From a virus, in the IMG/VR virus record IMGVR_UViG_3300009503_000027, positions 1-64,000 of that record: a stretch of 64,000 nucleotides of DNA; one strand, written 5' to 3'. Shown here in pieces: positions 1 through 63,898 of this stretch. The notes under the pieces were generated by a model. That model searched no databases. It saw nothing but the letters and a program-made list of their open reading frames with translations, and was not told the DNA's origin. Position 1 is the first letter of the stretch. The number at the start of each line of letters is the position of its first letter. The position numbers and the translations under genes are program-made.

Positions 1-263
1 CGGCCGCATGGCGGCCCCATGGCGGCCCCATGGGCGGCCGCATGGCGGCCCCATGGGCGGCCGCATGGCGGCCCCATGGGCGGCCGCATGGCGGCCCCAT
101 GGGCGGCCCCATGGGCGGCCGCATGGCGGCCCCATGGCGGCCCCATGGGCGGCCGCATGGCGGCCCCATGGGCGGCCGCATGGCGGCCCCATGGGCGGCC
201 CCATGGGCGGCCGCATGGCGGCCCCATGGGCGGCCGCATGGCGGCCCCATGGGCGGCCGCCAT
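1..263. repeat. GC-rich tandem microsatellite of 11/12-bp units, truncated at window edge
   Basis: About 22 units of GGCGGCCCCAT / GGGCGGCCGCAT / GGGCGGCCCCAT read directly. Confidence 0.95.
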
Positions 264-2336: not shown

Positions 2337-2618
2337 ATGAAATTCTATCGGTACAGGGTCGGAGAGAGCCGCATCACGGTCTCGCTACCAATGGAGGCTG
2401 GGTTGGCCGAAGACATATCCCGGAGCCTAGTCCTGCCGGAGGATGAGAAGCTGGTTCCGGTACCGGCGTGGACCGGGCCTGGGGGGTTCTAGGTCATAGG
2501 TGATGACATGGTCACCGCCTATGACGTCGAGCAGGGGAGTATCCACATCCTCTGGCAGGAGCCGATCTGGGCGGACGCGGAGATAGTGCGTGCCGTACGG
2601 CAGGCGGCGCAGGAGTAG
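2337..2618 (+). pseudogene. 93-codon ORF interrupted by one in-frame TAG
   Basis: AGGAGG SD, ATG 2337, MKFYRYRVGES...GPGGF*VIGDDMV...QAAQE*; internal TAG at 2490-2492. Confidence 0.55.
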
Positions 2619-2930
2619 GCCTGCTCTTTTGCGGCCACTAGCTGTTCCGCTGCCGCGCGAAAGACAGGCAGCCGGTGGGCAATCCGCCGCCTGCCTGTTG
2701 TCATTACGCGTCAGCGTTCCGCGCCCTGATGAACAAGGGATTGAGACACGCCGTGAAGCGTAGGCGCGTCTATGGGGTTGGGTATGGTTAGGGAATGCCG
2801 CCAGGCGCGTGTAATAGGCGTGGGTATGCCGCCGCGGGGGTGTTTGGTAGGGGTTGGAGGGTTATGAAGGTGGTTGCGGGCTTCTTCTGGCTGGTGGGGA
2901 GGGCTGCTTCCGGTGTCGGGGTCTGCCGGT

Positions 2931-3704
2931 TTATATTCGTGTTCCTTTGGGCATGAGGGAGTGGAGGGGGTAGAGGAGTGGGAGGGGGCTTGCTTCCACG
3001 ACGGGGTGTGGGGAGCCGAGGCGGCGGAGGGCCCGTTTGAGCCAGTCGGCAGTTTTGAAGGCTAGGCCGAGGCGCCGGCGGCCGATATCGCGGAGGAGGG
3101 TAGCGAGGGCCCAGGTACCTTGCAGGAGAGAACCTTGGATATAGTTAGAGAACCATGCTTGGGCATTTTCCGGGGCGGTAGCTACGGAGATGATGGTAGA
3201 GGGTGGCAGGATTCTCCATTCAGCGGTACCGAGTTGTGGGGAGTCGTGGAGGATATGGGTAGGGGGGATACGATCGGAGAGCCAGCCGGCGGCGTGGCAG
3301 GCATCTATTATGACGAGGGTAGTATATCTATGCCCCCAGCGGGGGGCGAAGGCGTTCCAGAGGTCGTCATCGGTGAACCAGGTACTTGTGTCTTGGGTAT
3401 CCGTATCATAGGTGAGGAGGGCTTCGTCGTAGTGGTCGGGTTCATCTTGGTTGGTGTCCCAGAGTTGGAGGCCGTGGCCGAGCCAGACCCAGACGATGGG
3501 GCCGTCATAGGAGACAAGTTTAGCGAGTTTACGTTTGAGTTGGGGGGTAGTGATGTTGAGGGTAGGGGGTTGGACTTGCCACCCGATGGCCTGGAAGGCT
3601 TCATTCCAGAGGCGGGCAGAATTCTCCACGGGGACCGGGGTGAGGTGAAGGTCGCGTGGTTCGGCGGGCAGGGCGCAGCCGGTGACCAGGGTACGTACTT
3701 TCAT
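2931..3704 (-). CDS. Caspase-family (peptidase C14, metacaspase-like) protease
   Basis: WLGHG-x-Q..D...DEPDHYDEAL and IIDACH motifs; His-Cys dyad intact. Confidence 0.8.
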   Translation of the reverse strand: MKVRTLVTGCALPAEPRDLHLTPVPVENSARLWNEAFQAIGWQVQPPTLNITTPQLKRKLAKLVSYDGPIVWVWLGHGLQLWDTNQDEPDHYDEALLTYDTDTQDTSTWFTDDDLWNAFAPRWGHRYTTLVIIDACHAAGWLSDRIPPTHILHDSPQLGTAEWRILPPSTIISVATAPENAQAWFSNYIQGSLLQGTWALATLLRDIGRRRLGLAFKTADWLKRALRRLGSPHPVVEASPLPLLYPLHSLMPKGTRI

Positions 3705-4327: not shown

Positions 4328-4630
4328 ATGTTAGAGGCTTCTGGGGGCATGGTTGCTGCCGTGGCGGCGGTTGTCTGGCTTCTCATGGATATACAGAAGA
4401 AGGCCGAGAAGCGTGACTGGGAAGGTTTGCTGAAGCAGGTGGAGGTAGTGGCCGTGAGTATTATTTGTTGTGTAGCTTGTTGTGTGGATGTCTTAGGTGG
4501 GGGGACGGTGGCAGGGAAAGTTTTGACAGGCTTAGTGATTGCCGCCGTGAGTACGGGGTATCATAAAGTTGCAAGCACCGCGATAGCAGTACGTGATGCC
4601 AATATGGGAGACGCGCCTAACGAGCGCTGA
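4328..4630 (+). CDS. Putative holin (small membrane protein)
   Basis: 2-3 hydrophobic segments, directly before the endolysin. Confidence 0.6.
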   Translation: MLEASGGMVAAVAAVVWLLMDIQKKAEKRDWEGLLKQVEVVAVSIICCVACCVDVLGGGTVAGKVLTGLVIAAVSTGYHKVASTAIAVRDANMGDAPNER

Positions 4631-5346
4631 TGACCATGATAGGACGTCAAGTAACTCTCGAAGGCTTAGAAGAGCATCTCCGGGGCCTCCGGGGACGGTT
4701 CCTGGAAGGTCATACCGTCACCGAGCTTATCCTGCACCATACGTGGTCGCCAACGGCGGCCCAGTACAAAGGCCTGGATACCTGGGAAGCCATCCGGGCA
4801 TATCATATGAGGGAGCGTGGCTGGCGGGACATCGGCTACCATTTAGGTATCGGGCCGAAAGAGGAGGGTGTCTGGCTCTTGCGGCCGATGACGATGATTG
4901 GGGGCCACTGCACGGGCCATAACAGCAAAAGCATCGGTATCGCCATGGTGGGCAACTTCGACAAGGAAGATCCGGAGTTATGTCTGCCCCAGGCGGTGAG
5001 GGTGCTGGCGGTTTGTTGCCGTGTCTTAGGCTTAGGGCCAGAGGATATCTACTTCCATCGGGACTTTGCCAACAAGACGTGCCCGGGGACGAAAATCAGC
5101 CGCGCGGATGTCCGGGCCTCGGTGGAGCAACTCCTAAAAACAGCGCCCAGTACGCCAAAGAAGCCCGGGAAGCTGCAAGTTGTCCGCGTGATTGATGATA
5201 ACCGTACTGAGGCGATACCATGTAACCCGAAGGTGGAAGGGGATGTTGTCCGGTGTGACCTACGGGCCTTGGCCGAGGCCCTGGGTTACGTAGTCACCGA
5301 TCATATTAAGGATCAGGGAATAGTCTATATCAGTCGGCGGGGGTGA
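4630..5346 (+). CDS. Endolysin, N-acetylmuramoyl-L-alanine amidase (Amidase_2)
   Basis: ILHHT, RGWRDIGYH, GHC.GHNSKSIGI, HRD...KTCPG; C-terminal stalk-like LRALAEALG domain. Confidence 0.93.
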   Translation: MTMIGRQVTLEGLEEHLRGLRGRFLEGHTVTELILHHTWSPTAAQYKGLDTWEAIRAYHMRERGWRDIGYHLGIGPKEEGVWLLRPMTMIGGHCTGHNSKSIGIAMVGNFDKEDPELCLPQAVRVLAVCCRVLGLGPEDIYFHRDFANKTCPGTKISRADVRASVEQLLKTAPSTPKKPGKLQVVRVIDDNRTEAIPCNPKVEGDVVRCDLRALAEALGYVVTDHIKDQGIVYISRRG

Positions 5347-5353
5347 GCATCCA

Positions 5354-5545
5354 ATGGGATTCGTGCCTAACTTCTTGGAGAATGTACTGAAGCCCGTCTT
5401 AGAGGAGATGGGCGCATACAAGATAGTGAGCCAGCACTGGAAGGCAGTGAAAGCAACGCTTGAGGAGCGTTATGGGAAGTTATCTGCCCGCGAAGAGCAG
5501 ATTGCCCGTACCGCCTGCGAACGCCTAATAGAGCATATTGTGTGA
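5354..5545 (+). CDS. Hypothetical protein
   Basis: Tightly packed operon ORF. Confidence 0.65.
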   Translation: MGFVPNFLENVLKPVLEEMGAYKIVSQHWKAVKATLEERYGKLSAREEQIARTACERLIEHIV

Positions 5546-5850: not shown

Positions 5851-6016
5851 TGGCTCCCTCGAAGTCGAGCTGGTGCAGAGGGCGGTGGTAGTCTTGCCGC
5901 CAGCGGAATGGGCCGTGCAGCGTGGCAAGAGGGTACAGCGGCGGCCGGTGGAGGAGATCATGCAGAACATCCGCCAGCGGCTAAAGGGGGCGAAGCCCAG
6001 TGGCCAACCTAAGTAA
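5807..6016 (+). CDS. Hypothetical protein
   Basis: GGAGG SD near the start, packed operon. Confidence 0.6.
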   Translation: MPMKWEIVSIRRLDDGSLEVELVQRAVVVLPPAEWAVQRGKRVQRRPVEEIMQNIRQRLKGAKPSGQPK

Positions 6017-6281
6017 TCTTAGCTCCGATCTGCGCCTTGACCTGCAGGGCCTGGAAGTACCCGACGGCCTCGGCGAAGTTGCCCGGGTACGTAAGGCTGG
6101 CTTTATCCGGCTGGATGGGATGATGGAGGTGCGCTTTGAGTGGCATGGGCTGCAGCATACCGTTGTAGTTCCCGCAGATGCCTCTGCCGCGGCCGTGGGC
6201 CAAGCCATCCGTGAGTTCATAGGGCGTGTCGCTCTTGACTTTGCCATCTCTGAGCTCGTCGGGATGGAGGTAGAAGCCTGA
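6000..6281 (+). CDS. Hypothetical protein
   Basis: Stop overlaps the next ATG (TGATG). Confidence 0.65.
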   Translation: MANLSNLSSDLRLDLQGLEVPDGLGEVARVRKAGFIRLDGMMEVRFEWHGLQHTVVVPADASAAAVGQAIREFIGRVALDFAISELVGMEVEA

Positions 6282-28400: not shown

Positions 28401-28852
28401 AGTTGCGGTGGATAGCAAATCAGCTAGAAGAATTAAAGCAGGGCCAGGTACAAGTGGGCAAGGCCATAAGACGTGGCCGCATACTGGCATGGTTAAAGTG
28501 GTTAATACCTGCCGCCGGTGTACCAATTATATGGCACTATGCGCACCGGCGGGGCGAAGAGGTAGCTAAAGGGGCGGGAGAGGCAGTCGGCGGTGGCTTC
28601 GAGGACTTACAGAGGATGCAAGAACAATACCAGCAGCAACCAGGTTGGGGCACTCCTGCCCAGCCTCCTGCTTGGGGTACTAGCCAGCCGCTGCCGCCGC
28701 CCACCGGCGGTGCCGCAGGAGGGGCGCCTAATATCTATATAGGGGGGAATGTTATTGTGAACAATCCCAACCGCCGCTTCTTAGAGGACTTCTCGGAGGC
28801 TATCGGGATTGACCCATCAGAGCTTGACCAGAAGATGGGGGCAAACTACTGA
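25436..28852 (+). CDS. Tape measure protein
   Basis: 1138 aa, helical; TPYQAEQI, LRRLGIT, FQRGGKV..SGLAYVHRGEVIVP motifs. Confidence 0.85.
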   Translation: MAMNVTVRVIPDRTTQELMAILSGRLQRAWRMSIFSRGDQRAIEQTIARMVQAQTQIAELQERLINAESDEHDRIRSRIAGIRVLLNLERQHLRILQLQAQQGTVLGRIFRGLRTVWQRTWGVFSSIYTPIMRAYWTLVSFYYMVGHLVRPIATLEYALLGLARRALSEVVRGIRTMITSAQELEGAVARSRALFGRGAGTRMVQWAMGLSIGTPYQAEQIFGAARMAQALQLGRYANIQDIILRAAGPLSVVFADRLQRGMEDAMYGIGRAVVGGYWRILRRLGITPEDLAAKYGTPMPGTEASRTEAGRAALLRAIMAEVMARYGGAVQEFAGTWQVLLADLKDIWQYFVLRYDWNVQEDTQRQGTITSLIKQLVKGFRDTFLSWMQSGKLDRFIESLVALTSWMQPLVSWIVQHMEPLIDYATQVLDRLYKWLDEAFLRFFGVRLKDLNTPEGLALFGKGLMANITSIGSDIIGILQAGLVLQKEMMNIMFLIADILARLTDYFTKGKYGVAQKVQVLWGAATQTMGKVIGWVGAAGQRVGQWSVYWRREELQEALRRLGYDEPEIQQILARVDQQVASDRNIETPQQQEAVYRRAVNWALERLRAGEFQPAVPQSFQRGGKVERSGLAYVHRGEVIVPTRPEWEELSPRERERQARALEEAMGWRRPAVWERAIGWLRGHRDLLMGEASLIPWLLPAGAGQGRIPEGLTRAWNWARGLWEQRRLERDIATDPESVQHRLGEYVARYGGPRGQGLSWADWQDALFILSFLFPIEGEVSSAIGVLMRMGRLSRAWRWVQLILGGGEAGGIMGFAEGAHREPWLTRAWTWLRRLVGGADEAQIRQWKRLASQLARERKWREARFFGRRARLAELRLDQRAVEVLRTWLRDKWTWWRRHFGDLEREVFHHKRGVKMLREARLIEDAEARRGAILRARRSELAEAAQAHRKARAARERSIWRAIWTRFAKIRARFAKEASEEAPQITDPELRWIANQLEELKQGQVQVGKAIRRGRILAWLKWLIPAAGVPIIWHYAHRRGEEVAKGAGEAVGGGFEDLQRMQEQYQQQPGWGTPAQPPAWGTSQPLPPPTGGAAGGAPNIYIGGNVIVNNPNRRFLEDFSEAIGIDPSELDQKMGANY

Positions 28853-57307: not shown

Positions 57308-58384
57308 TTAGCGCCGAACATGCACACTATGTTTGTCTACGCCTAGCCAAATGCTGATAGCCCCCAGGTCTGCAGGGGGCAAGCCCATCTCCGCTGGATA
57401 GCCCCTGTGCTTGAGAAAGGATGGTAACAATACCCTGTGTTGGCCATAGGCTACTACGAGGCCCTGTTCGTTGGGGCCGAAGCGGATGTCGCGCCAAGCC
57501 ATCTCTTGATGCAAGTGCCCCACCGTCACGATATCTGCGTTTGTGGTTGCAGCTATCCGGTCGGCACGGGAGACTTTTGCGCCCCGCGTCTGGGAAGCTC
57601 CCGCCCCATGATGGTGGTAATGGGTGTACATCTGCTTGACCTTGCCATTGATGATTAGCTTATATGTGAGATGGCCCTCGTAGCCCCAGAAAGGCAGGCC
57701 GAGCCGGTTGGCAAGCTCCTCCGAAGGATCCAGGTTTGCTTGTAAGAGGCGTGTGATGCGGCGGTCGTGGTTTCCTGTGAAGATGGCGATACCCTGGCTG
57801 GTGATAGGCCGTAGCCGCATGGTTAGTAGGTCTAGGGCTTCATTGAGTTCGCAGAACTGTTCGCGTAGGAGGCCTGGGCTTCCTGTTGTGGCCAGGTCGA
57901 AGTTGTCCCCGCCCAGGAACCATCGTGCTGTTGGGGTAGCGGCTATCCATTCCACCAGTTCGACGAACCGCTTGTAGTCGCAGTGCTTGCTGCCCAGATG
58001 TAGGTCTGAGATGGGAACGAGGCAGACTTCCTTTGTCCCACGGGGCACTTTCCATTCATATTCCAGGACTCTTTCTTGGGCTTCTGATTGTTCGAGGTAC
58101 TCCGCATCGAGGTCTTCCACCGTGCGTGCATCCGAGAAACGCTCGTTGCGCTGGAACATTATGGACTTCCGCCCTGTATGCTTCCCATGGCAGCCTAGCC
58201 CCAGCTTCCGGAAACAGTGCTGCATTGTGGAGGGCGAGAGGCCCACCCATTCGGCGGCAAGTTTAGCATTCCCATGGAAGCGCTGATGGAGAAGCAAGCC
58301 GCCTATCTCGTAGCCTCCTAGCATCTGCCATACTTGCCCCCCAACCCCGCGTAGTGCATCCCAATCTATCTTGTCGGCTTTCAT
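57308..58384 (-). CDS. Metallophosphoesterase with N-terminal HTH
   Basis: SDLHLG, GGD, GNHD, HHG, GHLH. Confidence 0.9.
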   Translation of the reverse strand: MKADKIDWDALRGVGGQVWQMLGGYEIGGLLLHQRFHGNAKLAAEWVGLSPSTMQHCFRKLGLGCHGKHTGRKSIMFQRNERFSDARTVEDLDAEYLEQSEAQERVLEYEWKVPRGTKEVCLVPISDLHLGSKHCDYKRFVELVEWIAATPTARWFLGGDNFDLATTGSPGLLREQFCELNEALDLLTMRLRPITSQGIAIFTGNHDRRITRLLQANLDPSEELANRLGLPFWGYEGHLTYKLIINGKVKQMYTHYHHHGAGASQTRGAKVSRADRIAATTNADIVTVGHLHQEMAWRDIRFGPNEQGLVVAYGQHRVLLPSFLKHRGYPAEMGLPPADLGAISIWLGVDKHSVHVRR

Positions 58385-59331
58385 GGCTCTACCTCGGCGG
58401 CAAGATCTTCCTTATTATACCCCGCTTCGCTATCGGATACACTATCCCATAGGCTGAGCTGGCCAACTTTCTCCTGTGCTGTTTGTGGGTCAATCCATAG
58501 GGATTCTATTCGGGGCTGCATGGTTGATCTTGCCCCGTTGCCCCGGATACCGGTGGCCCTTGTACAAGCTGCTGCTAAGCACGTCCTATTGAAGTCAAGG
58601 CGTACCCACCCGGCCTCTTCCAGGGGAGCATAGACCTCGTGCTTGTATCCCGACAAGGCAAACTTCCCCGGTAACCCTAGGATAGTGCGAACAAGCTCTG
58701 CATGGTCCTCCACCGTCATTTCGTGCATATATACATCGGGCGACCGTCGGACATCGGGGACGTATGGTGGGTCAAGATAACAGAACGAGTGCGGAGAACA
58801 GTATTGTTGCAAGACTTCAATGGCGGGACGCGACTCTATGTGCGCTCCATGGAGGCGGGAGGCACATGCGGGCAATACCCTAATCGTGCTCAACAGACGT
58901 GCACAGGTGCCAGCCATGTGGCGGGAGGTAGTCTCAACTGCAAGCGACCAGCTGGCCCCCCAGTAGCCCGAAAAGGACTGCTTGGCAACTACCCACCAAC
59001 GCCACGCCCTACGCACTGGGTCAGTTTCGTTGTTCCATTCGCGGCGGCACTCCTCATACAGTTCCCGGCTGTGTAAGGTGAAGTATGCTAGATGCATAAA
59101 CTCATCCGGGTGATCGCGTAGGACACGAAAGAATTCCACCAAGGGCTGGTGGATATCATTGATGACCTCGAAGCGGGCTGGTGCTTTAGCAAAAAACAGG
59201 GCGGCAGAACCACAGAATGGCTCAATGTATACATCATGGGCTGGCATCAATGAAAGCAGTTGTCGCAGGAAGGGCGTTTTGCCGCCATACCAGAAGAATG
59301 GCGCTGGTATCCTTGGTCCATTACTGGTCAT
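58381..59331 (-). CDS. Dam-like (D12) DNA adenine methyltransferase, copy 3
   Basis: YGGK, EPFCGS, IND, DPPY. Confidence 0.93.
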   Translation of the reverse strand: MTSNGPRIPAPFFWYGGKTPFLRQLLSLMPAHDVYIEPFCGSAALFFAKAPARFEVINDIHQPLVEFFRVLRDHPDEFMHLAYFTLHSRELYEECRREWNNETDPVRRAWRWWVVAKQSFSGYWGASWSLAVETTSRHMAGTCARLLSTIRVLPACASRLHGAHIESRPAIEVLQQYCSPHSFCYLDPPYVPDVRRSPDVYMHEMTVEDHAELVRTILGLPGKFALSGYKHEVYAPLEEAGWVRLDFNRTCLAAACTRATGIRGNGARSTMQPRIESLWIDPQTAQEKVGQLSLWDSVSDSEAGYNKEDLAAEVEP

Positions 59332-60212
59332 GCCTCTTCTCCTATTAATTGCGTCTGTGCCCGGACCAGCTTGGCAGTTTCGGGGTCAAGCCAGACGGAC
59401 TCAACCCGCGCTTGTTTTTCCAAGACAGTGCCGTCGCCCAGGAGCCCCGTTCGGCGCGACCGTGCGGCGGCATAGCATCCCGTGGGGAAGTCTATCCGTA
59501 CCCATCCTGCCTCTTCCAATGGTTTGTATACTTCGTGGTTATATCCTGATAGCATGAAGCGCCCAGGCAAGGATAAGAGGACCTCAACTAATTCTTTATG
59601 CTCTTCTACAGACATTTCGTGGTCATATACGGTACTACTGCGGCGTGTGTCAGGAATATATGGCGGGTCGCAGTAGCAGAACGAGTTTGGTGTGCAGTAT
59701 TGCTGCATGACTTTGATAGCGGGGCCGCACTCTATCTGGGTACGTTTGAGACGCTCTACACAATCGGGCAGGTGTTCAACTGCTGAAAGCAGAGCACTAC
59801 AGGACATCGCCATGCCACGGCGTGATAATGTGATGTTAGATCTCCATCCTGCTCCCCAGTTGCCGGAGAAGGACTGGCGCGCCACTACCCACCAGCGCCA
59901 TGCTTTGCGGACCGGGTCTGTTTCTTCGCGCCATTTGGCCCTGCATTCTTCGAATAACTCGCGGCTATGGATTGTCAGCCTGGCGAGTTCTATGAACTCT
60001 TGGGGATAATCGCGGAGAACCCGGAAGAACTCCATCACGGCATGGTCAATGTCGTTAATGGTTTCAACCAGGGCCGGCTCCTTGGCAAAGAAGAGTGCTC
60101 CACTGCCAAAGTACGGTTCAACATACTCCCTGTGTGGGGGCACTAGGCGTAGTAGCCTTCCTATCATGTTGCCTTTACCTCCGTAGCGGCAAATGGGCGA
60201 GTGCAAGTGCAT
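59328..60212 (-). CDS. Dam-like (D12) DNA adenine methyltransferase, copy 2
   Basis: YGGK, EPYFGSG, INDID, DPPY. Confidence 0.93.
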   Translation of the reverse strand: MHLHSPICRYGGKGNMIGRLLRLVPPHREYVEPYFGSGALFFAKEPALVETINDIDHAVMEFFRVLRDYPQEFIELARLTIHSRELFEECRAKWREETDPVRKAWRWWVVARQSFSGNWGAGWRSNITLSRRGMAMSCSALLSAVEHLPDCVERLKRTQIECGPAIKVMQQYCTPNSFCYCDPPYIPDTRRSSTVYDHEMSVEEHKELVEVLLSLPGRFMLSGYNHEVYKPLEEAGWVRIDFPTGCYAAARSRRTGLLGDGTVLEKQARVESVWLDPETAKLVRAQTQLIGEEA

Positions 60213-60515: not shown

Positions 60516-61091
60516 TTACTTGAGCCGGATTGTGCCCTGCCGGCTTCTGTCTGTTATCCAGACATGGATGCTAAAGCCCCGGATACCTAGGTCAGACAGG
60601 AGTGCCTGTACATGCATTGCCTCATCGCCACGGTAAAGATCGAATAGGATATATCCTTCGTGCCCGCAAGAGCCAGTAGTATTTATACCCTCATTGCGGA
60701 GAGCGTAAACCACCGGCCGGATGCATTCGTCTATTGCCTGGTAGAAGGACGTTTCGGGCGGCGTGGGCAATGGTCTACTTCCCGCAACTACCTCAATCCC
60801 ACATGCACGGAGCTTTTGTACCATCTGTTGTTGGCGCACGGCTTCTCTTACATCCTGCAGGTATGCTTTGGTCGCCGGGGCAGAGTCCAGCCAGTCTGCC
60901 CCTTCCCAGGTTACCCAACTTGCAAAGTGGCATAGGAAATGTTCAGCCGGCCAAGCCTCCTCGAGGGTGCGCGCCTGGCGAAGAGCAAAGTCGGCAAAAC
61001 TTTGTGCTATCTGGTGGCAAGCTCCTTGCCTCACGGCGAAGCTGTAAAGCTCGCTTCTCAATACGTCCCATGTTGTTGATGGGCCAACCAT
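60516..61091 (-). CDS. Hypothetical protein
   Basis: IDECI..V.AL...GI.T..SCGH motif common in phage proteins. Confidence 0.65.
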   Translation of the reverse strand: MVGPSTTWDVLRSELYSFAVRQGACHQIAQSFADFALRQARTLEEAWPAEHFLCHFASWVTWEGADWLDSAPATKAYLQDVREAVRQQQMVQKLRACGIEVVAGSRPLPTPPETSFYQAIDECIRPVVYALRNEGINTTGSCGHEGYILFDLYRGDEAMHVQALLSDLGIRGFSIHVWITDRSRQGTIRLK

Positions 61092-61148
61092 TACTGTTGT
61101 GCTTTTCCCCTGTGCCTCTTGGTCATTAGGGCGCCCCTCATGCTGTTA

Positions 61149-61225
61149 GGTGGAGGCGGCGGGAGTTGAACCCGCGTCCGGTGGCAAGCTCAATCCGCTT
61201 GCACATCGTCGAGCCCATCGCCCCC
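61149..61225 (-). ncRNA. Mini-tmRNA: tRNA-like domain only (no tag ORF or pseudoknots)
   Basis: GGGGGCG-AUGGGCUCGA-CGAUGUGCAAGC-GGAUUGA-GCUUGCCACCG-GAC-GCGGG-UUCAACU-CCCGC-CGCCUCC-ACC; G3.U70 pair, stemless D loop, T arm. Confidence 0.8.
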
Positions 61226-61618
61226 AACGAATGGTACATCTTCTATCTGCCTGTAGATGATTTTACCATGTTGCTGGGCATGTGCCAACTCCATGTCTGC
61301 TCCCTTTGAGGGAGCAAGATACAAAAGTGCATCCACCATCTCAACTATCCGGAGGTCCATCCGCATGAAGTCTTCCCACTTAAGTTTATACCCAGAGAGA
61401 AGTGGCATCCAGCAAGTCATGCTATGAGGGACTATGACTGCCCAGCCTTTCTGCATCAGCTGTACACCCGCGCGGACTGCCCTATATATGTTCCAGACCT
61501 GTTTGATGAAAGACAGGGGCCAGGGCCACCCGCGGCCCATGTATGGCCCTGCAATGTAAATGATTGGCAGTTTTCCCTGTTCTTGAGCGCACCCTAGCGG
61601 GGGGCGGCAGAATCTCAT
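61190..61618 (-). CDS. DUF4406 / nucleoside deoxyribosyltransferase-like protein
   Basis: IYIAGPY, G.....PH, M..DL, DAL...SKGA.ME; AGGAGG SD. Confidence 0.8.
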   Translation of the reverse strand: MRFCRPPLGCAQEQGKLPIIYIAGPYMGRGWPWPLSFIKQVWNIYRAVRAGVQLMQKGWAVIVPHSMTCWMPLLSGYKLKWEDFMRMDLRIVEMVDALLYLAPSKGADMELAHAQQHGKIIYRQIEDVPFVGGDGLDDVQAD

Positions 61619-61632
61619 TCGTACTTTACCTC

Positions 61633-62550
61633 CTACAGTTCTGAGTGGCCGAACAACTTGCCACTTTGTATTCCTAGCTCTTTGGCTGTTCTGGGGTCGA
61701 GCCACACCGACTCGATGCGTGGCTGCATAGCCGTAGCGGCGCCCTTGCCTAGTATGCCGGTGCCGACTGTCCGGCCAGCCGCATGGCAGGCTGTCCGGAA
61801 GTCCACGCGTGCCCAGCCCGCCTCTTCTAGGCGGGCATACAGCGGATTGGCATACCCGGATAGTAAGACCTTCCCCTTGACCTCCCCTGACAGGAGGAAG
61901 TCAATAAGACGTACGTGGTCCTCCTCCGACATCTCATATGTGTACACTTTGGGTTGAATTCGCGTACTCGGCAGATATGGCGGGTCTAGATAGTGCAAGC
62001 AATCTGGCGTATCTGTCCGCATAACAGCCCTCTGCCAATCCGTGCAAGAAATCTGAACACCTTGTAAGCGCGCAACTACTTGCGGAAGGCTCTCTACGCA
62101 AGACAAGAGGCTGGCCACTCCTTTGGGCATTGCGCCAGCAGTTTGTGTGCGCGTATGTCCCCACGCTGCTCCCCAATTGGCCGCGAAGCTCATCCTTGCG
62201 ACTACCCACCAGCGCCACGCCTTGCGGACAGGGTCTGTTTCTTCGCGCCATCTGGCCCGGCACTCGCGCCAGAGTGCTTCACTATACTCTGTGAGGGCGG
62301 CAAGTTGAATGAATTCCTCTCCGTGGTCGCGAAGCACGCGGAAAAACGTGGTCACGGCCTCATCTATGTCATTGATGGTTTCGTGGGGCGCCGGGGCCTT
62401 GGCGAAGAACAAGGAGCCGCCGCCAAAGAACGGTTCGCAGTATTGCTGATGAGAAGGCACCAGCCGTAGAAGTCTTCCCACCATGTTGCCCTTACCTCCA
62501 CGGCGCTGGATGGGCGAGCGGAGCCGACGTTTCCTTTTGTCGGGTGCCAT
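61633..62550 (-). CDS. Dam-like (D12) DNA adenine methyltransferase, copy 1
   Basis: GGKG, EPFFGGGS, INDID, DPPY. Confidence 0.93.
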   Translation of the reverse strand: MAPDKRKRRLRSPIQRRGGKGNMVGRLLRLVPSHQQYCEPFFGGGSLFFAKAPAPHETINDIDEAVTTFFRVLRDHGEEFIQLAALTEYSEALWRECRARWREETDPVRKAWRWWVVARMSFAANWGAAWGHTRTQTAGAMPKGVASLLSCVESLPQVVARLQGVQISCTDWQRAVMRTDTPDCLHYLDPPYLPSTRIQPKVYTYEMSEEDHVRLIDFLLSGEVKGKVLLSGYANPLYARLEEAGWARVDFRTACHAAGRTVGTGILGKGAATAMQPRIESVWLDPRTAKELGIQSGKLFGHSEL

Positions 62551-63730: not shown

Positions 63731-63898
63731 TTATGGCTGGGTTGCGTTTTCTATTGCCGCCGTTGCATTCTGGACTACATTGCGAACGGTCTGTCCCAGC
63801 TGTGACCAGACTGCTAGCCCCGCAACTACTACTATGGCCAGCAGCAATGCATACTCAACGCTTGTTACTGCTGTTTCGTCCTTCCACAGGGTCCTCAT
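63731..63898 (-). CDS. flp: Flp/Fap type IVb (Tad) pilin
   Basis: 55 aa, below the ORF-track cut-off: MRTLWKDETA|VTSVEYALLLAIVVVAGLAVWSQLGQTV...; E+5/Y+6 motif; GGAGG SD. Confidence 0.8.
   Translation of the reverse strand: MRTLWKDETAVTSVEYALLLAIVVVAGLAVWSQLGQTVRNVVQNATAAIENATQP

Follow-up and report, generated by a model that had tools for sequence, protein, structure and literature searches.

Trans-translation is nearly universal in bacteria and serves as a drug target; a phage RNA that blocked or diverted it would amount to a naturally occurring inhibitor and could be used as a simple tool. The locus described here raises the question of whether a phage gene can encode a tmRNA of which only the tRNA-like domain (TLD) is left and, if so, what such an RNA might do. 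The DNA analysed, hereafter the window, comprises the initial 64 kb of an IMG/VR virus record of 80,834 nt (CheckV 86%). A preliminary description of the window had pointed to a phage-encoded mini-tmRNA with a complete TLD and no mRNA-like domain, and its transcription of the minus strand from 61149 to 61225 proved to be exact.

Identity and fold of the element

The candidate gene for this TLD-only (tag-less) tmRNA, here called mini-tmRNA, spans 77 nt at 61149-61225 on the minus strand, with RNA position p corresponding to window coordinate 61226-p. Using Rfam we obtained a match of the tmRNA model RF00023 to 61148-61225 on the minus strand at 59.0 bits (gathering score 47, E 1.6e-20), and tmRNA is the best-scoring family of its Rfam clan at this locus. 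The match covers model positions 1-374, thus running from end to end of the model, and 20 nt stand in place of the 314 model positions that hold the pseudoknots and the tag frame.

Read on the minus strand from the 5' end, the RNA begins with the 5' acceptor strand G1-G7 (61219-61225), which contains G3 of the G3.U pair. In the minimum free energy fold this strand forms a 7-bp acceptor stem, G3.U included, with the 3' strand CGCCUCC, which is followed by the discriminator A and CC (61149-61158 for the whole 3' segment). Next to the 5' strand lies a stemless D-loop analogue (AUGGGCUC) and then the G-A of the conserved UCGAC (61209-61218). In the Rfam alignment this unpaired loop, ending in UCGAC, is 2 nt shorter than the consensus. 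Helix 2 (61179-61208) replaces the pseudoknots and the tag frame; it folds with 10 standard pairs (C18-G47, G19-C46, U21-A44, G22-C43, then six more), one A.C mismatch, one bulged U and a 7-nt apical loop at 61190-61196. A GAC linker leads into the T arm, which has a 5-bp stem and the 7-nt loop UUCAACU (61159-61178 for linker and arm). The acceptor is of the alanine type, with its 7-bp stem, G3.U and discriminator A. At the 3' end the DNA encodes A-C-C and then U (61148), the final A of CCA being absent. The folding energy of the element is unremarkable (z = -1.64, with 11 of 200 shuffles folding equally well), so its significance derives from the covariance-model score.

No mRNA-like domain, that is no resume codon, tag reading frame or stop codon of one, was found in the 77 nt, and the RF00023 alignment and the fold contain none of the pseudoknots PK1-PK4, which are not possible in an RNA of only 77 nt. 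The element is not a tRNA either: it has no anticodon arm and D stem, and ARAGORN finds zero tRNAs in the whole virus record, which leaves mini-tmRNA as the one tRNA-like gene that the phage has. Its complete tRNA-like domain, short closing hairpin and lack of a tag frame fit the TLD-only type of tmRNA represented by phage DS6A. We conclude with high confidence that mini-tmRNA is the phage gene of a tmRNA that has kept only its tRNA-like domain, although its shortened D-loop and unencoded terminal A count against this. On this point the preliminary description is borne out by the RF00023 match, the fold and the virus record.

The sole tmRNA gene that ARAGORN calls in the virus record is a 'permuted' one at 60852-61242 with the tag AHPRGGLAG*. 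We rejected this call, as RF04321, the model for permuted two-piece tmRNA, scores 25.5 bits, below its cut-off of 47, and covers only 61122-61179. The proposed tag was rejected as well; it falls within the downstream gene ORF191, in a different frame. The gene order of mini-tmRNA is 5' then 3', which is the standard order, unlike the permuted one. It had been expected that tRNA and tmRNA finders would miss the element. This was half wrong: Rfam scores mini-tmRNA above the cut-off, and ARAGORN makes a call over it, but a mistaken one. At 67 of the 70 viral loci of the family described below ARAGORN calls nothing that overlaps the element.

Genomic setting in the phage

The element lies in a virus record, with dnaN, a D12 methylase gene, an integrase gene and a helicase gene as neighbours, and is phage-encoded. 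It belongs to a minus-strand run of genes consisting of dnaN, the D12 methylase, a DUF4406 gene, mini-tmRNA, a 191-aa ORF and an HTH gene. Within 17.8 kb around mini-tmRNA no other tRNA-like sequence was found, and the phage's own genome yielded neither a SmpB gene nor an RF-1/ArfB gene. The downstream gene ORF191 (60516-61091, minus strand, 191 aa) belongs to no Pfam family. Contigs of minor strains deviate from it mostly at positions a multiple of three bases apart, the pattern that a genuine coding gene should give. Low-depth contigs of run X1, covering 60531-60672 and 60886-61015 of the window, show 21-23 differences to ORF191 over about 130-140 bases; from their sequence they look like a second, diverged phage strain in the same spring. 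Three similar-looking methylase genes lie in one operon on the minus strand (58381-59331, 59328-60212 and 61633-62550). The last of these is a D12 class N6-adenine methyltransferase according to the Pfam scan, and the likeness of the other two was judged by eye.

A single tyrosine integrase gene is found at 66212-67285 of the record (minus strand), preceded by a ComM/Mg-chelatase-like ATPase gene, and the phage is probably a temperate one. A 23-nt tandem repeat (unit CGGCCCCATGGGCGGCCCCATGG) is shared by the two ends of the record, where it occupies positions 1-263 of the window and the last 178 nt of the record (80657-80834). Probably the genome is circular or terminally redundant and the assembly broke inside this repeat.

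The phage is present in two public runs that bear the label hot springs metagenome, and no RNA run was listed as containing it. In both of these DNA runs the mini-tmRNA gene is without differences, so there is no micro-variation to use. A sigma-70-like promoter match (TTGGCA, 17 nt, TG-TAAAAT; 10/12) is present on the minus strand at 61260-61288, inside the DUF4406 gene and about 35 nt upstream of the mini-tmRNA 5' end. This is a consensus match only, and promoter-like sites are not enriched, with 2 in 4 kb against 2.5 expected from shuffles. No terminator was found 3' of mini-tmRNA.

The DUF4406 gene runs into the element

The gene upstream of mini-tmRNA (61190-61618, minus strand) is a member of the DUF4406 family, with a PF14359 score of 23.2 bits against a cut-off of 22. 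We chose its start, ATG at 61618, from the homologue P0001; the longest frame starts with GTG at 61705. The PF14359 domain ends near residue 150 of 171. The last 11 codons of the gene and its TGA (61190-61192) are at the same time the first 36 nt of mini-tmRNA: the reading frame enters the element in frame from G1, and the stop codon sits in the apical loop.

P0001, obtained by protein search, is a DUF4406 homologue with 82% identity that is encoded on a 703-nt ENA contig. The window protein ends in ...EDVPF-VGGDGLDDVQAD and P0001 in ...EDVPF-TREF-IGGDRFDDVQAN, with a 4-residue insertion just upstream of the C-terminal tail. In-frame read-through and the stop in the apical loop recur in P0001 despite this insertion. 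The tails themselves read GGDRFDDVQAN in P0001 and GGDGLDDVQAD in the window protein. The three substitutions fall at RNA positions 10 and 13 in the D-loop and 31 in the apical loop, all of them unpaired, and the residues encoded by the acceptor strand and helix 2 are unchanged. Since the protein tail is shared in the same frame, the 5' half of mini-tmRNA appears to be kept in this relative. The preliminary description had named conservation of only the 3' ~30 nt as the pattern that would speak against an RNA gene; judged from its protein tail, the close relative P0001 does not follow that pattern.

As the overlap is in frame, excising mini-tmRNA would strip the DUF4406 gene of its stop codon. 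This could work as a non-stop switch, in which release of the RNA by RNase P would remove the stop, and the protein would be tagged and degraded for as long as host trans-translation is active, building up only when mini-tmRNA has put tagging out of action. Such a switch would be a phage counterpart of arfA-type regulation, but we consider it rather doubtful. Counting stop-to-stop frames, a same-strand frame of at least 60 codons has its stop inside the element at 9 of the 70 viral loci of the family, and at 16 of 70 such a frame ends within 30 nt upstream of the element; these frames need not be genes, and we attach no significance to the counts. Tight packing is common in the family and stops naturally fall in A/U-rich loops, so the overlap may be mere compaction.

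A family of TLD-only elements in viral and other contigs

Covarying short-loop homologues, which the preliminary description had said would support the element, were found in a search with a TLD pattern. In this pattern only the universal TLD bases are fixed, and 12-42 nt are allowed between UCGAC and GGAC. It matched 70 loci in viral contigs and 22 loci in one-genome-per-species bacterial and archaeal contigs, and a narrower pattern carrying the acceptor of the window element matched 63 loci in metagenome contigs. In total the search gave 157 matches representing 121 distinct sequences, mostly 79-82 nt long.

Among the window element and 58 viral sequences, the two free acceptor pairs are paired in 59 of 59 with 4-5 pair types, and the two free T-stem pairs in 58-59 of 59 with four types. 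The first five pairs of helix 2 are formed in 49-58 of 58-59 sequences, and the third acceptor pair, a position left free in the pattern, is G.U in all 59. Pairing also lies far above that of shuffled partners: acceptor pairs 5 and 6 are paired in 71 and 70 of 76 sequences (shuffled means 30.4 and 45.0), T-stem pairs 1 and 2 in 120 and 122 of 122 (49.4 and 48.3, with a shuffled maximum of 62 for pair 2 in 1000 partner shuffles of 122 distinct sequences) and helix-2 pairs 1-5 in 97-114 of 122 (49.0-69.3), figures that overstate independence because the sequences were picked by pattern and the shuffles ignore relatedness. The structure is kept by compensatory change at the level of the family; for the window copy the protein tail of P0001 suggests the same indirectly.

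Four other family members that were scanned with RF00023 gave 63.8-81.2 bits over matches of 73-83 nt. Same-strand tRNA genes occur within 1 kb of 16 of the 70 viral copies, some of which lie inside arrays of 20-28 tRNAs, a context expected of an RNA that is made and processed like a tRNA. ACCA is encoded in 102 of the 121 distinct copies, and the window copy is among the 19 without it. The closest members of the family reach 79% identity with the window element, confined to the conserved cores. No nucleotide-level relative of mini-tmRNA was found among the family matches, so selection on the window copy has to be read from one protein tail.

Protein queries with DUF4406, DnaN and ORF191 found no related viral contig. 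A tblastn search of five window proteins against all loci retrieved returned only two distant matches, DUF4406 at L023 (28%) and DnaN at L113 (25%). We clustered 2884 ORFs located up to 2.5 kb from 155 family loci and scanned ten cluster representatives against Pfam, which gave GP88/DUF7227 and one weak match; in this way the family members showed no conserved neighbour protein with a functional annotation. Overall, the mini-tmRNA family is much larger than the single case in print, and it is missed by routine phage annotation.

Individual loci differ in their surroundings. At L054 the mini-tmRNA (5280-5361) lies wholly within a same-strand open frame of 340 aa (4477-5499, minus strand) that has no Pfam family, and this type of frame recurs in 6 loci. 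At L024 a Pistol self-cleaving ribozyme (RF02679, 51.9 bits vs 34.5; 6093-6154, minus strand) is found about 100 nt upstream of the mini-tmRNA (5905-5987) on the same strand, and may process its transcript. The metagenome contig L104 contains a 73-nt mini-tmRNA (2413-2485, minus strand, 81.2 bits) together with the 5' start of a second tmRNA (1-83, minus strand, 50.7 bits), which is cut by the contig end. Four contigs from Candidatus Saccharibacteria MAGs (L080, L082, L085 and L088) carry TLD-only elements of 64-72 nt with a plain hairpin, which may be prophage genes or else a reduced tmRNA of the cells themselves. The elements of four contigs from Nocardioides and other actinobacteria (L083, L086, L087 and L098, among L078-L099) are 90 nt long, with one mismatch in the acceptor and a D-loop that lacks GG, and from these sequence features they may be a separate, possibly decayed subgroup.

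Possible functions of mini-tmRNA

We hold with moderate confidence, by analogy with a similar molecule, that mini-tmRNA most likely titrates SmpB and would thereby inhibit tagging. The RNA would be transcribed on the minus strand, either from the replication-module operon (dnaN, methylase, DUF4406, RNA, ORF191) or from the promoter-like site at 61288-61260. RNase P would then cut at G1, the 3' end would be trimmed, and the CCA-adding enzyme, which is needed because only ACC is encoded, would complete the CCA. AlaRS would charge the RNA by way of G3.U and the discriminator A (A73), and its elbow and helix 2a would bind host SmpB. The RNase P, CCA-adding enzyme, AlaRS and SmpB steps are taken from established tmRNA biology. 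Finally, mini-tmRNA would compete with host tmRNA for SmpB and also for EF-Tu and stalled ribosomes. Having no resume codon, tag frame or stop codon, it could only compete with host tmRNA, and ssrA tagging and degradation would be lowered during infection.

A molecule similar to the DS6A type is reported to inhibit tmRNA in E. coli (PMC4131195, PMC11915505). According to the first of these sources the inhibition occurs whether or not the molecule is chargeable, which fits titration better than rescue without a tag. Sequestration of SmpB is also what both papers give as the literature proposal for the DS6A-type molecule (PMC4131195, PMC11915505), and a crystal structure of a TLD-SmpB complex is cited in PMC11090510. 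Counting against titration is the fact that other phages carry complete tmRNAs, which suggests that phages may want more rescue, not less. For SmpB binding and structural work the thermophilic, compact and well-scoring window copy is a convenient candidate.

The same components could instead be put to use in rescue. Here the charged mini-tmRNA and SmpB would enter stalled ribosomes and accept the nascent chain on alanine, and the ribosome would be freed by drop-off, by Pth or an ArfB/ArfA-type factor, or in repeated rounds; ribosomes would thus be recycled without marking proteins for degradation. The mini-tmRNA sequence has every element required to be charged and to enter the ribosome as a mimic of tRNA. 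CDS-less tmRNAs persist together with SmpB in jakobid mitochondria and some plastids (PMC11915505), and other phages invest in rescue, as evidenced by three isolates with complete permuted tmRNAs, one of them behind an RF-1-domain gene. However, without a stop codon the RNA has no built-in termination, the phage has no RF-1/ArfB gene of its own, and the similar molecule mentioned above reportedly inhibited tmRNA irrespective of charging (PMC4131195). We regard tag-less rescue as unlikely.

Less likely still is a role of the sequence in phage integration, in which the 3' ~33 nt of mini-tmRNA would be the attP core of a tyrosine integrase that targets the 3' end of host ssrA, with the RNA shape being secondary or the sequence doing both jobs. 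tmRNA genes are common integration targets (PMC4383910, PMC10865867), the tyrosine integrase gene is about 5 kb away from mini-tmRNA, and no other tRNA-like sequence was found in the surrounding 17.8 kb or in the whole record. Moreover, very deep contigs of other organisms in both hot-spring runs match only 61139-61181 and then diverge, which shows in the bin 61093-61253 as a summed depth of about 2800-3400 vs 6-16 elsewhere in both runs. These community contigs are presumably bacterial tmRNA 3' ends; among the matches listed they have 2-5 differences to 61139-61181 and are not identical to the phage over the 33 nt. An attP also needs only the 3' part, yet the complementary 5' acceptor strand, the D-loop and a closed helix 2 are all present, and P0001 seems, from its protein tail, to keep the 5' half. 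The integrase gene is not adjacent either, with five ORFs in between (helicase, a small ORF at 63731-63898, dnaN, methylase and DUF4406), and family members sit inside tRNA arrays. An attachment role, which would be compatible with a role as RNA and does not exclude it, is in our view improbable.

It is highly improbable that mini-tmRNA is an inactive relic of a complete phage tmRNA after internal deletion, or an RNase P processing signal punctuating the operon transcript. In favour of this reading are its position within an operon, with no terminator behind it, and the lack of a close nucleotide relative that would reveal purifying selection on the window copy. A relic, however, would not be expected to retain an acceptor stem that is perfect, a T arm that is intact and a helix 2 that closes well, and in the covarying set of 121 distinct sequences it is the compact form that is under selection.

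Comparison with known systems

With canonical tmRNA, as modelled in RF00023, mini-tmRNA shares the G3.U acceptor, the discriminator A, the UCGAC D-loop analogue, the GGAC linker, the T arm and the start of helix 2. Where canonical tmRNA has a resume codon, a tag frame, a stop codon and pseudoknots, the middle of the window element is a 7-nt loop on a 10-pair helix.

Permuted phage tmRNAs, described for Melnitz-type phages (PMC9004378), are likewise phage-encoded and tmRNA-derived, and the 3' half of their TLD is 84-94% identical to that of the window element over 32-43 nt. They differ in having a permuted order and a tag frame and score 79-111 bits with RF04321, whereas the window element has the standard order, no tag and a score of 25.5 bits with this model. 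Three phage isolates contain such genes. Tunturiibacter phage Tunturi_4 (L002, PP885687.1) has an unannotated permuted tmRNA at 2974-3383 with 79.2 bits and, by ARAGORN, a 33-residue tag. It lies directly 3' of gp53, annotated as an RF-1 domain peptide chain release factor and of ArfB-like size, so two ribosome-rescue functions stand side by side in this acidobacterial phage. Alcaligenes phage vB_Af_QDWS595 (L003; 2972-3225, 111 bits, tag ANDNVYAAAA) and Bordetella phage vB_BbrM_PHB04 (L004; 2980-3221, 104.5 bits, tag ANDDYIRAAA) carry complete permuted tmRNAs that adjoin tRNA arrays and are unannotated in both records.

Reduction to the tRNA-like part is also known from organelles, in the CDS-less tmRNAs of jakobid mitochondria and the plastid tmRNAs of ~65 bp (PMC11915505). 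In a comparison by description only, these replace the resident tmRNA and are not a second, viral copy. For the gene overlap the counterpart is Carsonella, in which a protein gene likewise runs into the tmRNA gene and maturation of the tmRNA would leave the overlapping smpB mRNA non-stop (PMC4131195). In Carsonella it is smpB itself that overlaps the cellular tmRNA gene, whereas in the window a DUF4406 gene overlaps a tag-less phage RNA.

The closest counterpart is found in phage DS6A. The novelty implied in the preliminary description was overstated, as Hudson, Lau & Williams listed 'Mycobacterium phage DS6A (TLD only)' already in 2014 (PMC4131195), an entry repeated in a 2025 database paper (PMC11915505) and numbered tmID 11587 / Phage__Mycobacterium.9 on the tmRNA Website. 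Beyond these DS6A mentions we found no printed survey of phage TLD-only tmRNAs; supplementary tables (PMC9004378 Table S1, tmRNA database) may list more. We located the DS6A element at 28478-28560 on the plus strand of JN698994 (83 nt). Like the window element it is phage-borne with a complete tRNA-like domain that covers RF00023 positions 1-374, it has 20 nt in place of 312 model positions (314 in the window), and its phage encodes a tyrosine integrase. On the other hand, its RF00023 score of 43.2 bits is below the cut-off of 47, unlike the 59.0 bits of the window copy, and it has GGCAC and a different T stem where the window has GGAC, differences owing to which the TLD pattern would not match it. 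The DS6A copy lies in the intergenic gap between gp33 and gp34 and the window copy overlaps the end of a protein gene, and their hosts, Mycobacterium and a hot-spring bacterium, are unrelated. Overall, RNAs of the mini-tmRNA kind are already known from DS6A, and the window copy is a thermophilic, high-scoring and gene-overlapping further member, which by itself adds a member and an unusual gene overlap to the known system, not a new principle.
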